A DNA stretch of 64,000 nt from Myxococcales bacterium (GCA_016703425.1 JADJCA010000011.1:250050-314049), one strand, 5' to 3'; positions 30,977 through 39,055 are shown, counted from the first letter of the stretch. Made by a program: numbers and translations. The notes: a model not told the origin generated them from the sequence alone.

Positions 30977-32171
30977 ATGCGGTTTAGTGCTCGTCGCGCC
31001 ATAGAGCGCTCATGCTCGTTGGACGACCTCGACGACGTCCAGGGCGGATGCCATCACCCGAAGATCGAGGACAGCATCGAGATCGACAACGGTGGTCTAG
31101 GCATCTTCGGCCCCAACCAACAACCCTTCTTCGGCGGCGGCATCGGCGTCGGTGGACCTTCGCCGCTCGTCCCCGCGGGCAGCTTGCCCGTGAACGGCAT
31201 CGGTCCCAACGGCGGCCTCGGCGTGCTCGGCAGCGGGCTCCATGGGCCCAACGGCGAAGCCATCGTCGGCTTCGGTCCTCACGGCGAACCGCTCGGCGGA
31301 GTCGGTGGCGTTTTTGGGCCCGACGGTCAGGTCATCGGCGGCATTCCCGGTATGGGTCCGCTCGGAGGTTCACCCTTGAACGGCGCCGGTGTCGTGGGCG
31401 GCTCGCCGCTCGGGGTTGGCGGAGTCGGCGGCGTTGGCAACTTCGCTCCGAACGATTGGAATGGCGCGCTTCAGGCCGTTCATCAGAACGGCGCGAACGG
31501 CGGCGGTGCTGGCGTGGTCGGCGGCGTGGTCGGCGGCGTGCCTGGTGGGGGGGTCTTTGGTGCGGGAGGCAGCGCGCACCCGCTTGGCGATCTAGGTGCC
31601 TTTCGCGCCCAACGCTGGAGCGGGGTTGGGTGCCGCGGGAAATCCGGGAATGATGTACCCGCCCGGTAGCGGCATGGGCGCCGGCAACGGCGTGGGGCCC
31701 GGAGGTGGCCTCGGCGATCTCGGAGCCTTCGGCGTCGGCGGCGCGGGCGCTAACGGTGGAGTCTTCGGTCCGCTCGGCGTCGGTGCGAACGGAGGCGTCT
31801 TCGGCGCACCGGGCGCTCCCGGCGGAGGCATTCTCGGCGTCATCGGCGATCCGAACGGACTCGGCGGCGGCGTTGTGAACGCGGGCGGCATCTTCGGCAA
31901 CGGCGGAGCCGGCGGCGCAGGCGGCATCTTCGGTGCACCGGGCGCGCCCGGCGGAGGCATCTTCGGTGTCGGCGGCAACGGCGGCATCTTCGGCGTCGGT
32001 GCGAACGGTGGCGTGTTCGGTGCGCCGGGCACGGTGAACGGCGGCGGCGTGGGCGCGTCGGGCAACTCGTGGGACGGCTTCTCGCCGAGCAACGGCGTGG
32101 GCGCATCGGGCAACACGGGACTCGCGAATCCGTTCGCGGCGTACGCGCCGTCAGCGGCGATCCCCAAGTGA
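30977..32171 (+). CDS. Glycine-rich repeat protein with N-terminal double-glycine (GG) leader; candidate PCAT cargo; apparent +1 frameshift near 31596-31605
   Basis: GGAGGAA Shine-Dalgarno 5 nt before ATG 30977. Leader MRFSARRAIERSCSLDDLDDVQGG fits the LSxxELxxIxGG consensus (L-7, acidic -8/-9, V-4, GG-1/-2). The body is about 400 aa of GG(I/V)FG, GPNGG and LGDLGAF repeats. The frame-2 ORF (30836..31669) and frame-0 ORF (31596..32171) are both Gly-rich and share the LGDLGAF motif, so they form one gene interrupted by a single-base indel. Confidence 0.55.
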
Positions 32172-32327
32172 TCGAGGCGCGCGCGCTGTAGCGGCGGGCC
32201 CGCTGCGGCGCGCGCGAGCTTGGTCGCACAACCAGGAGCAACGCCTCGCGCTCACCGCGTCGAGGCAGTTTTCAAAGAAACCAGGCACGTCACGACGAGG
32301 CTTCCGAGAGCCACGAGAGACGCGGGA

Positions 32328-32380
32328 GTGTGGGACGGCGCCGCCCATCCACGGGGCGGGTTGGCGGCGTCGTCCCACAC
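32328..32380. repeat. 18-bp imperfect inverted repeat (stem-loop) between the cargo gene and tolC-like gene
   Basis: GTGTGGGACGGCGCCGCC, a 17-nt loop, then GGCGGCGTCGTCCCACAC; 17/18 complementary. No downstream T-run. Confidence 0.5.
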
Positions 32381-37755: not shown

Positions 37756-38102
37756 GCAGCCGGCCGCCGACGCCGAGTGCGCCGCCGCAGGGCGCGATGC
37801 CCGGTGCTGTCATCGGCTCGCGGCCGCCGCCGTCGCTTCACTTTGGCGACGAGCACGCGACCCTCGCGCGCGGGCCCAAGCCGCCGTTGCCGCCGCCCCG
37901 CGGCAGCACGCCGCCGGGCCAAAGCCGCGCGCCCACCGGAGCGCAGACGACGGCGGGCCGCGACGTGCGCCCACCGGCGCTCCGCGCCATCGGCGGCGGT
38001 GCCACGCCCGATGGCGGAGGGGCGCAGTTTGAGGCGGCCGACGATGCGCCGACGCTCAGCGAGAAACAGTTCGAGAACCTCTGGAGGTCGTCGGCCGGAT
38101 GA
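37734..38102 (+). CDS. Pro-rich 122-aa ORF; either a separate small protein or the frameshifted continuation of the PCAT tail
   Basis: It shares the PQGAM motif with the PCAT tail. The reading frame upstream of its ATG encodes AQERALAQAQMEAQQ (same style as the tail). Its stop overlaps the next gene start (ATGA). Confidence 0.3.
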   Translation: MEAQQRMSSRPPTPSAPPQGAMPGAVIGSRPPPSLHFGDEHATLARGPKPPLPPPRGSTPPGQSRAPTGAQTTAGRDVRPPALRAIGGGATPDGGGAQFEAADDAPTLSEKQFENLWRSSAG

Positions 38103-39055
38103 AACATTCCACTCTTCTCAAGTTGGTCGGAATCGTGGCGACCGTTCTTGGGGCGCCGCTGCTCGGCGTCTTGATGACGCCCAAACGCGAGAACGTCGCG
38201 AAGGCCGAGGAGGCGCAGACGGAAGCGGTGACGTCGGCGACGGCGGCGGCCAAGCCCATTCCCACCAGCGATTTCGTCGGCGTGCTGCTTTCGCAGCAGA
38301 TGGCCACCATCTCGTCGTACGCCGACAGCCGCGTGATGTCGCTTGAGGTCAAAGTCGGTCAGCGCATCCACAAGGGACAGAAGCTCGTCGTCCTCGACCC
38401 TCGCTCGACGCAGCAAGAGCTCGAAGGCGCCAAGGGCGCGCTCGCCGCCGCCGGCGGCCAGGCCGGCGCCGCGGCCGCCGAGGCCCGCTTCGCGAGCCAA
38501 CGGGCCAACCGAAGAAACGAGACCATCGACCTCGGCGGCGGACGAAAGATGTCCCTCGTCTCCGGCGAAGATCAGGGCCAGGCGCTCTCCGACCGCGCCG
38601 CCGCAGCGGGACGTGCAGCCTCCGCGGCAGGCTCGATGGCGCAGGCGCGCGCACGGATCAAGCAGCTCGAGCTCGCCCTCGAGAACATGGAGCCGATGGC
38701 GCCCTTCGACGGCGTCGTGCAGCAGATCATGGTCGAGACCGGAACGACGATTCACAACGGCCAGCCGCTCGTTCGGCTCGTCGGTGGCCAAGGGCTGCGC
38801 GCAAAGATCGCGATCCCGGAGGAGGCCGCTGGCGTTTGGCAAGGCCGTCGACGCGCGCAGCTCGACGTCGACATTCAAGGCCAGACGCGCACATTTTGGG
38901 CGGTCATCGATCAGGTGGCCCCGGAGGTTGAACCGGCCTCACGCTCCTTCTTCATTGAGGGACCAGTACCGGTGACGCCAGAAATGTGCGGCGGCGATTG
39001 CGTGATGCTCGGTGGGCGACCTGTGAAAGCGAGCCTCATTTCCGACAAGGAGTGA
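38099..39055 (+). CDS. Second periplasmic adaptor / HlyD-family membrane fusion protein
   Basis: N-terminal TM (LLKLVGIVATVLGAPLLGVLM); biotin-lipoyl-like hairpin (MSLEVKVGQRIHKGQKLVVLD ... FDGVVQQIMVETGTTIHNGQPLVRLV); beta-barrel C-terminus. Confidence 0.55.
   Translation: MKHSTLLKLVGIVATVLGAPLLGVLMTPKRENVAKAEEAQTEAVTSATAAAKPIPTSDFVGVLLSQQMATISSYADSRVMSLEVKVGQRIHKGQKLVVLDPRSTQQELEGAKGALAAAGGQAGAAAAEARFASQRANRRNETIDLGGGRKMSLVSGEDQGQALSDRAAAAGRAASAAGSMAQARARIKQLELALENMEPMAPFDGVVQQIMVETGTTIHNGQPLVRLVGGQGLRAKIAIPEEAAGVWQGRRRAQLDVDIQGQTRTFWAVIDQVAPEVEPASRSFFIEGPVPVTPEMCGGDCVMLGGRPVKASLISDKE

Follow-up and report, generated by a model that had tools for sequence, protein, structure and literature searches.

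Does the glycine-rich protein encoded beside a type I secretion operon in a Myxococcales genome leave the cell through that operon's ATP-binding cassette transporter with a peptidase domain (PCAT)? The question is raised by a stretch of 64,000 nucleotides (nt) from Myxococcales bacterium (GCA_016703425.1, JADJCA010000011.1:250050-314049), here called the window, in whose coordinates all positions are given. An earlier note on the window had proposed that the gene starting at ATG 30977 encodes a protein of about 400 aa with a double-glycine (GG) leader of the kind cleaved by C39 peptidases, followed on the same strand by the genes for a TolC-like outer membrane factor (OMF), a CvaA/HlyD-like adaptor, a PCAT and a further adaptor. 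We find that the Gly-rich gene is genuine, codes for about 395 aa and is under purifying selection, and that the exporter architecture is complete, with its catalytic residues present. Judged by its N-terminal sequence and its setting, the protein is, at slightly better than even chance, a substrate of the adjacent PCAT system that would be cleaved after Gly24 and threaded out unfolded.

The proposed product of about 400 aa cannot be read from the window itself, where a frameshift had been overlooked: the open reading frame (ORF) from 30977 stops at 31669 after 230 aa, and the rest of the Gly-rich reading lies in the +1 frame (31596-32171, 191 aa). Composition shifts abruptly at a TTT run, where frame 0 passes into an Arg-rich 21-residue tail and frame +1 soon repeats LGDLGAF. 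The same 230-aa product is found in the database as MBK6694852.1, from a Myxococcales metagenome-assembled genome (MAG). Independent copies of the locus were found through the identical protein of the first membrane fusion protein gene (MFP1), present on more than 20 contigs of other assemblies, and four of these contigs, from independent assemblies of the same organism, extend as far as the frameshift: L049, which is another MAG; L050, from ENA, with contig names (k141_) that point to short reads; L053, assembled by Logan; and L056. TT replaces TTT in each of them (4/4), and a single intact ORF runs from the same ATG for 397 aa in L049 and 394 aa in L050 and L053. Since TT stands in every other assembly covering the site, the protein of about 400 aa is real, and the extra T of the window is an error of assembly or else a private mutation. 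The absence of the extra base elsewhere led us to reject a programmed +1 frameshift at UUU-C, and two separate genes were rejected as well, given the intact ORFs elsewhere and an out-of-frame 21-residue tail holding 5 Arg/Lys, compared with 2 in the whole 373-residue mature sequence.

Comparison of haplotypes provides the evidence for selection on the gene. With the extra T removed, the window differs from L050 by 27 substitutions, 23 of them at third codon positions; 23 are synonymous and 4 non-synonymous, for a ratio of non-synonymous to synonymous polymorphism (pN/pS) of 0.065, and the corresponding ratio against L049 is 0.084. The third-position pattern changes phase by +1 precisely where the extra T sits, the sole indel between haplotypes is 9 nt long and in frame, and the other five frames each carry 3-8 stops. 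A pseudogene, or non-coding GC-rich low-complexity DNA, would account for the ORF being split in the window, for the tendency of all frames of (GGC)n-like DNA to stay open and for an antisense Pro-rich ORF at 31592-32167; yet the ORF is intact across four independent assemblies, the substitutions follow the sense codons with the phase shift just described, and the antisense frame that shares the wobble positions contains 6 stops, so we give this explanation next to no chance. The antisense ORF (191 aa, minus strand) mirrors the second half of the gene and, with those 6 stops over the whole gene, was rejected as an artefact. Third-position bias within the internal repeats does not separate the sense frame from this wobble-sharing antisense frame; the haplotype comparison and the stop counts did.

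At the start of the gene, the strong GGAGG ribosome-binding site described for ATG 30977 is present, and an in-frame stop at 30773-30775 limits upstream extension, the farthest ATG giving a 71-aa leader. The protein begins MRFSARRAIERSCSLDDLDDVQGG followed by CHHPK (in a longer read, MRFSARRAIERSCSLDDLDDVQGG followed by CHHPKIEDSIEIDNGG) and is thereafter very Gly-rich; as the earlier note had stated, Cys comes first after the GG site. The predicted post-cleavage N-terminus is Cys-His-His (31049-31057), and this Cys is the sole one of the mature protein. Amino-terminal Cu(II)- and Ni(II)-binding (ATCUN) sites are marked by a His as third residue from a free N-terminus, and reading Cys-His-His in this way is speculative. 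The N-terminal 22 residues are charged and Gly-free, end in V-x-G-G and contain no hydrophobic signal segment, so that the Gly-Gly stands at residues 23-24 of a protein without a Sec signal. A lipoprotein or Sec/Tat signal was ruled out by inspection, as the N-terminus lacks a hydrophobic segment and has Gln at -3. Among the haplotypes, no single-nucleotide polymorphism (SNP) occurs over 284 nt (30827-31110) that take in the 5' region, the leader and the first ~20 mature codons, while 18 SNPs lie in 30608-30826. In L056, nt 1-105 do not match the window and would change the N-terminal segment of the protein, as a contig-end chimera or a variant allele.

Read back from the predicted cleavage site, the leader residues are G-1, G-2, Q-3, V-4, D-5, D-6, L-7, D-8, D-9, L-10, S-11 and C-12. 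They fit the Gram-negative leader consensus M(R/K)ELx3E(I/L)x2(I/V)xG(G/A) (PMC3140520) in the cleavage-proximal half only (G-1, G-2, V-4, L-7 and D-8, the last an Asp where the consensus has Glu), which makes the description of the leader as canonical an overstatement. The acidic character of the leader also agrees with published motifs. The leader would thus provide the Val-4 and Leu-7 contacts with the C39 groove, without the Leu-12 contact reported for GG leaders (PMC6363468). A position-specific scoring matrix (PSSM) built from 21 leaders gave it 10 bits, corresponding to p = 3.5e-4 per position (one million six-frame positions), and the same matrix picks out a classical GG peptide beside a homologous PCAT of Archangium. 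Taken alone the leader motif is weak evidence, and what weight it may have comes from its context: the Gly-free, charged N-terminus, the supported start codon, the correct strand and a PCAT operon directly downstream.

That operon bears out the gene order set out in the earlier note, with Pfam and NCBIfam domains confirming the TolC-like factor, the CvaA/HlyD-like adaptor, the PCAT and the further adaptor on the same strand (Table 1). An ABC exporter, a membrane fusion protein (MFP) and a TolC-family OMF, the three parts of a type I secretion system (T1SS), are thus encoded together. The suggested search for PF03412 and PF00005 gave matches to the PCAT for both, and the catalytic Gln, Cys, His and Asp of its C39 domain align with those of LahT150 and PCAT1, the motifs QQTASTDCGAAC, SHFVVF and IVDPA matching the Cys, His and Asp motifs. 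The C39 domain is closest to LahT150 (PDB 6MPZ, E = 1.5e-28), and the C39 domain, the six-helix ABC transmembrane domain and the nucleotide-binding domain form a single chain, whose residues 41-734 align colinearly with residues 15-715 of PCAT1 (4RY2) and which is colinear with ComA too. The best NCBIfam model, TIGR03796 (NHLP bacteriocin export ABC transporter, peptidase subunit), scores 591.9 bits, below its cut-off of 853.3, and the protein is therefore not an equivalog of that family.

Table 1. The Gly-rich gene, its flanking signals and the exporter operon, in window coordinates
Feature	Position	Strand	Basis or remark
Shine-Dalgarno GGAGG	30967..30971	+	5 nt before ATG 30977; seen in the sequence itself
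Putative 24-residue double-glycine leader MRFSARRAIERSCSLDDLDDVQGG	30977..31048	+	Consensus fit and PSSM
Gly-rich mature region and stop codon	31049..32171	+	373 aa with the extra T removed
TTT run with 1-nt insertion splitting the gene	31601..31603	+	TT in L049, L050, L053 and L056
Sigma-54-type -24/-12 promoter-like site TGGCACCAGACGTGCT	30847..30862	+	115 nt upstream of ATG 30977
Structured spacer with three hairpins (32178-32216, 32315-32394, 32395-32445)	32172..32510	+	Minimum free energy -192 kcal/mol
TolC-like outer membrane factor (OMF)	32511..33971	+	PF02321, E = 1.6e-48; TIGR01844 below cut-off
CvaA/HlyD-type membrane fusion protein (MFP1)	33968..34948	+	PF13437 (HlyD_3), PF16576; ATGA overlaps at both ends
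PCAT: C39 peptidase, ABC transmembrane, ATPase and tail	34945..38102	+	PF03412 (E = 3.2e-32), PF00664, PF00005
Second adaptor (MFP2), RND_mfp-type	38099..39055	+	TIGR01730 94.9 bits, exactly at cut-off; PF16576; ATGA overlap with PCAT tail ORF

The ATGA overlaps said to chain the exporter genes are seen in the window at 33968-33971 (OMF/MFP1) and 34945-34948 (MFP1/PCAT), and in the intact assemblies they join all four genes, MFP2 included. The PCAT described as intact is so in its catalytic residues; its ORF is split in the window into 34945-37755 (936 aa) and 37734-38102 (122 aa) by an indel in a CAG tract near 37697-37700, taken to be a second assembly artefact. In the short-read assemblies L050, L051 and L052 the protein is intact at 1055 or 1052 aa, the tract being 4 nt longer than in the window in L050 and L052 and 5 nt shorter in L051, and each of these lengths restores the frame. 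It follows that the real PCAT has a tail of ~320 aa and that all four exporter genes are translationally coupled. The tail (37150-38102) comes after the ATPase domain, is rich in Gln, Ala and Pro and has a poly-Gln run of at least 12, and the C-terminus of the 122-aa ORF is homologous to the PCAT tails of relatives, which are shorter (80-110 aa) and end in a common motif, R(D/E)V.P.AL.A.GGGA..(F/Y)D..DAPTW. Across the assemblies the length of the CAG tract (near 37660-37700) varies by +24, +4 and -5 nt relative to the window, and the tail is out of frame in the window and L049. Both frameshifts of the window are confined to low-complexity tracts, and Pfam searches of ten other ORFs showed no split domains that would point to wider indel errors.

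The predicted mature protein has 373 aa, a mass of 32.8 kDa and a pI of 4.5, and consists of 36.5% Gly, 10% Ala, 9% Pro, 9% Val and 7% Asn, with only 2 Lys+Arg, 12 Asp+Glu and a single Cys at position +1. The GG(I/V)FG repeats noticed earlier occur in 9 copies (0.1 expected), Gly recurs at every third residue (34 GxxGxxG against 17.7 expected, equalled in 2/2000 shuffles), a 27-nt (9-aa) unit is repeated 2.6 times at 31952-32022, and further short degenerate repeats include GAPGAPGGG and LGDLGAF. AlphaFold2, run on the single sequence, returned a predicted local distance difference test (pLDDT) score of 35 and no fold, with only the leader region reaching ~50, where it forms a short helix; the mature polypeptide is predicted to be unstructured. 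Pfam gave no match for the protein, RTX (PF00353) and collagen included.

A Gly-rich protein with a nine-residue tandem unit next to a T1SS might also be read as an RTX-like substrate, exported by a C-terminal secretion signal, with a periodicity left by degenerate RTX repeats and an N-terminal GG of no relevance. We see very little chance of this. Besides the missing PF00353 match, the repeat NGG(I/V)FG(V/A)(G/P)x has none of the Ca-binding Asp of GGxGxDxUx, and the C39-like domain of RTX exporters is inactive or absent, whereas the Cys/His site here is intact. The RTX and pseudogene readings are effectively excluded.

Export by the PCAT would be compatible with more than one function, and in a functional variant of the same explanation the product is no structural material: it would be a giant antibacterial toxin, of the class II microcin or Cdz-like kind, forming aggregates at the surface of the producer and harming the membranes of neighbouring cells. 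A GG leader combined with a PCAT, MFP and OMF is indeed the export route of class II microcins and CdzC/D, which are likewise Gly-rich, hydrophobic and aggregate-forming, and myxobacteria are predatory and competitive. However, no immunity gene (no immunity-like small hydrophobic ORF) was found in 30560-30990 or 32160-32520, GxxxG zippers are not above what the composition predicts (48 observed, 48.8 expected), no transmembrane-grade segment is present (maximum 19-residue Kyte-Doolittle score 1.39), and the protein is 3-6 times the size of Cdz or microcin toxins. Together, the absent immunity gene and the lack of GxxxG enrichment argue mildly against a toxin role, which we regard as improbable.

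The Gly-rich gene is separated from the operon by a spacer of 339 nt, in which it departs from the earlier description of a gene immediately upstream of the exporter genes. Three strong hairpins intervene there (folding z = -9.6 against shuffles), for which Rfam gave no family and only generic hairpin-like matches. Among the haplotypes, hairpins 2 and 3 are free of SNPs, with many SNPs and indels in the adjoining sequence, and hairpin 1 has one SNP in its loop and another that turns a G-C pair into G-U. The hairpins are likely a terminator or RNA-stability element between cargo and exporter genes, and their folding and the invariance of two of them suggest that they terminate or stabilise the transcript of a highly expressed cargo gene. 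Upstream of the gene, TGGCACCAGACGTGCT is the only match of its kind in the 64-kb window, where 0.05 would be expected for a pattern loosened at one position once the site was known, and it falls within the 284-nt SNP-free stretch; if the site is functional, the upstream ATG 30836 is ruled out as the start codon. A scan for sigma-70 promoters found none, and a scan for intrinsic terminators gave nothing above chance. A sigma-54-like promoter of its own seems to precede the probable cargo gene, and strong hairpins seem to come after it.

Checking synteny in related Myxococcota, as the earlier note had advised, gave a divided answer, the exporter module being kept and the readable relatives having no adjacent cargo gene. 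MFP1 has at least 150 homologues at E <= 1e-30. The OMF-MFP1-PCAT-MFP2 module is kept at ~60% (57-61%) identity in Polyangiales and Myxococcales MAGs (L001-L003, L064/L065), and all four genes recur in JGI contigs; L059 has no PCAT. MFP2 adjoins the PCAT gene in L001-L004, L013 and L064, and the pairing of two different adaptors, one CvaA/HlyD-like and one RND_mfp-like, is consistent in these myxobacterial PCAT operons (the window, L001-L004, L013, L064). In place of a cargo gene, L001-L003 have a divergent secreted-protein gene upstream of the OMF gene; this gene is conserved, and its product has an N-terminal signal-like segment. L064/L065 have small ORFs beyond the downstream end of the module, none of which encodes a GG peptide. 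Further contigs ended short of the upstream region.

The closest exporter relatives are JGI contigs of samples 3300048101 and 3300045391 (MFP1 identity 67% and 63%). Their gene tables list an unannotated ORF of 353 aa (3300048101) or 459 aa (3300045391) on the strand of the OMF gene and immediately upstream of it, in the slot that is taken by the Gly-rich gene in the window; AAA_33 and CBS genes, which the window also has upstream, are found upstream in one of the two contigs. In Archangium lansingense (L004), whose PCAT is 43% identical to that of the window, a 73-aa GG precursor at ~4357-4575, consisting of MAKIQTKKLALHKETMRVLENSDLEKVAGG and then a Cys-rich core of 43 aa, is found upstream of an MFP2-MFP1-PCAT cluster and is probably an unannotated bacteriocin or precursor of a ribosomally made peptide modified after translation (RiPP). 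A Gly-rich stretch in L004 was also considered as cargo and rejected, being inside an unrelated 736-aa ORF judged FHA/TonB-like by eye. As for the wider neighbourhood, a Ser/Thr kinase gene adjoins the module (39092-40456 in the window; divergent and upstream in L001-L003), and two tandem genes with formylglycine-generating enzyme (FGE)-sulfatase (SUMF1-like) domains occupy 41962-45197, downstream of a PEGA-domain gene.

Several of these results weigh against the Gly-rich protein being a PCAT substrate. The positions -12 and -15, where leaders have hydrophobic contacts, are held by Cys and Glu, with a Leu at -10 instead, and the 10 bits of the leader lie near the bottom of the leave-one-out range of the matrix (2-38 bits, median ~20). 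Chance matches occur with the same matrix, as the N-terminus of a HemL-like enzyme scores 17 bits. The recommended search with leader models gave no match to any Pfam or NCBIfam leader or bacteriocin model, for NCBIfam even at E <= 10 with the protein and with the leader alone. The homologues of the leader-cargo pairing on which the earlier proposal was staked did not appear either, none being credible in the following searches: among 1.84 billion representatives HMMER matched, at E<=0.001, the query and, spuriously through low complexity, one repeat protein of 3719 aa, and 5.8 billion clusters searched by a word index yielded nothing but the query. Back-translated peptides, and likewise an exact DNA pattern across the frameshift site, had no match in JGI metagenome contigs, while a query of the N-terminal 129 aa matched nothing, not even the Gly-rich protein itself, and so tells nothing about homologues.

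Further points on the same side come from size, structure and setting. That GG cargos are normally small, as the earlier note remarked, is confirmed by the cargos surveyed or tested: 290 cyanobacterial GG precursors span 28-164 aa, Cdz proteins are of 5-10 kDa, and in the MccV system secretion drops at 116 aa. The precursor, at 394-397 aa, is more than twice as long as the largest GG precursor surveyed (164 aa), and the 373 aa of the mature protein amount to ~3-4 times the length that already depresses export in the MccV system; as a substrate it would exceed the known cargos about fourfold. The structure prediction lends no structural support to any function, an immunity-like ORF is absent from the intervals searched, the 339-nt hairpin-rich spacer implies that the Gly-rich gene is transcribed separately, and no GG-leader or Gly-rich gene adjoins the exporter in the relatives with readable DNA (L001-L003, L064/L065).

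The principal competing account starts from the same points and holds that the Gly-rich protein is real and not a PCAT substrate, its GG being the coincidental start of a 36%-Gly region, with the PCAT exporting small GG peptides encoded elsewhere. To the modest leader score with its -12 mismatch, the equal or higher chance scores at real enzyme N-termini and a size above known PCAT cargos, it can add the closest sequenced exporter relatives, which have no adjacent cargo gene, so that cargo can lie elsewhere, the Archangium homologue paired with a classical GG peptide with a 43-aa core, and a spacer whose hairpins suggest an independent transcription unit. Against this account, the composition is that of an extracellular low-complexity protein, yet no other export signal is recognisable; the 22 N-terminal residues, charged and free of Gly, lead exactly into V-x-G-G, position -7 being Leu and -8 acidic; and the position and strand of the gene relative to the exporter are kept in every haplotype. 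From the rate of PSSM scores >=9 bits over ~700 kb, the chance of such a motif at an ORF start <=2 kb upstream and on the right strand is roughly 0.01-0.04. We consider a non-substrate unlikely overall, while still the most serious competitor to export by the adjacent PCAT.

If the Gly-rich protein is indeed a substrate of the adjacent PCAT, Val-4 and Leu-7 would anchor its leader, folded into a short helix, on the C39 domain, which would cut after Gly24, and ATP hydrolysis would thread the unfolded Gly-rich chain along the conduit of PCAT, adaptor and OMF and onto the cell surface or into the medium. Once exported, a hydrophobic low-complexity chain would most likely self-associate, and the product might serve as surface or matrix material, or else as a giant microcin- or Cdz-like membrane-active agent. 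We infer the cleavage, the export and any extracellular role alike, and a structural or adhesive role, also put forward in the earlier note, is conjecture. A fuller proposal, to which we would give somewhat less than an even chance, is that the PCAT exports a 33-kDa disordered, elastin- or silk-like self-assembling protein by means of an N-terminal GG leader, and that related myxobacteria may encode other large cargos in the slot upstream of the OMF gene, something the 353-aa and 459-aa ORFs of the two JGI contigs hint at.

The usual view takes PCATs for exporters of peptides, and one proposal, in line with the drop of MccV-system secretion at 116 aa, is that the cargo must fit the transmembrane cavity. 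A natural cargo of 373 residues would imply that a long unfolded chain is threaded as in HlyB-type systems and driven by a cleaved N-terminal leader, linking two classes of T1SS mechanistically, and would open to full-size self-assembling proteins a pathway whose limit has been put at peptides of ~100 residues or fewer. Its leader would also provide a tag with which Gram-negative hosts could secrete large proteins of a disordered or repetitive kind (biomaterials), and a new kind of extracellular Gly-rich protein would be known from the myxobacteria, in which gliding, predation and fruiting-body formation are built on the biology of surface and matrix. Should the link prove false, the locus would still serve as a warning that GG-leader motifs alone predict weakly and that long-read MAGs can split low-complexity genes.

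Among known systems, the likeness to elastin and silk is one of composition only: Gly, Val, Pro, Ala, Leu and Phe dominate, there is almost no charge, the repeats are short and degenerate (GGVFG) and disorder is predicted, whereas there is no homology and no cross-linking Lys/Ala blocks, so the comparison, between proteins unrelated in phylogeny, is purely analogical. LahT and the NHLP/Nif11-type PCATs are the nearest by sequence, with LahT150 closest to the C39 domain and TIGR03796 to the whole PCAT, and the leader end SLDDLDDVQGG resembles the acidic L-x-D-E-L-x-x-V-x-G-G ends of LahT/NHLP-type leaders (ProcA sequence). The present system differs from them in scoring below the TIGR03796 cut-off, in having no NHLP/Nif11 leader domain, second ABC subunit or modification enzymes, and in a cargo that is not a short RiPP core. 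With RTX/HlyB systems, the only well-studied T1SS class handling cargos of this size, it would share a large unfolded Gly-rich repeat protein and a one-step ABC-MFP-TolC conduit; RTX proteins, however, have an uncleaved C-terminal signal, Ca-binding GGxGxDxUx repeats and an exporter with a dead C39-like domain, while here the putative signal is N-terminal, the repeats lack the Asp and the C39 domain is intact.

Two further parallels are the microcin V and Cdz systems. Like CvaC with CvaA-CvaB-TolC, the locus combines an N-terminal GG leader of the type cleaved by the exporter C39 domain with a CvaA-type adaptor and a TolC-type channel, and the putative cargo is Gly-rich, hydrophobic and of low charge, its gene lying beside the exporter genes; native microcins are noted for their high content of Gly and hydrophobic residues. 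It is unlike MccV in a mature cargo of 373 aa rather than under ~100 aa, in Cys at -12, in the lack of an immunity gene and of homology to any microcin, in an operon that adds an OMF and a second adaptor, and in a PCAT with a Gln-rich tail of ~320 aa. The Cdz system of Caulobacter (CdzAB, CdzC/D; PMC5380434) differs in having small proteins (5-10 kDa, against 33 kDa here) with extended GxxxG zippers, where the present protein is enriched in GxxGxxG instead, and in having the immunity protein CdzI, of which no counterpart gene was found. CdzC/D are nevertheless leader-bearing, Gly-rich, hydrophobic and T1SS-secreted like the putative cargo, and they self-aggregate on the producer surface (PMC5380434), a precedent for a self-assembling product exported in this way.

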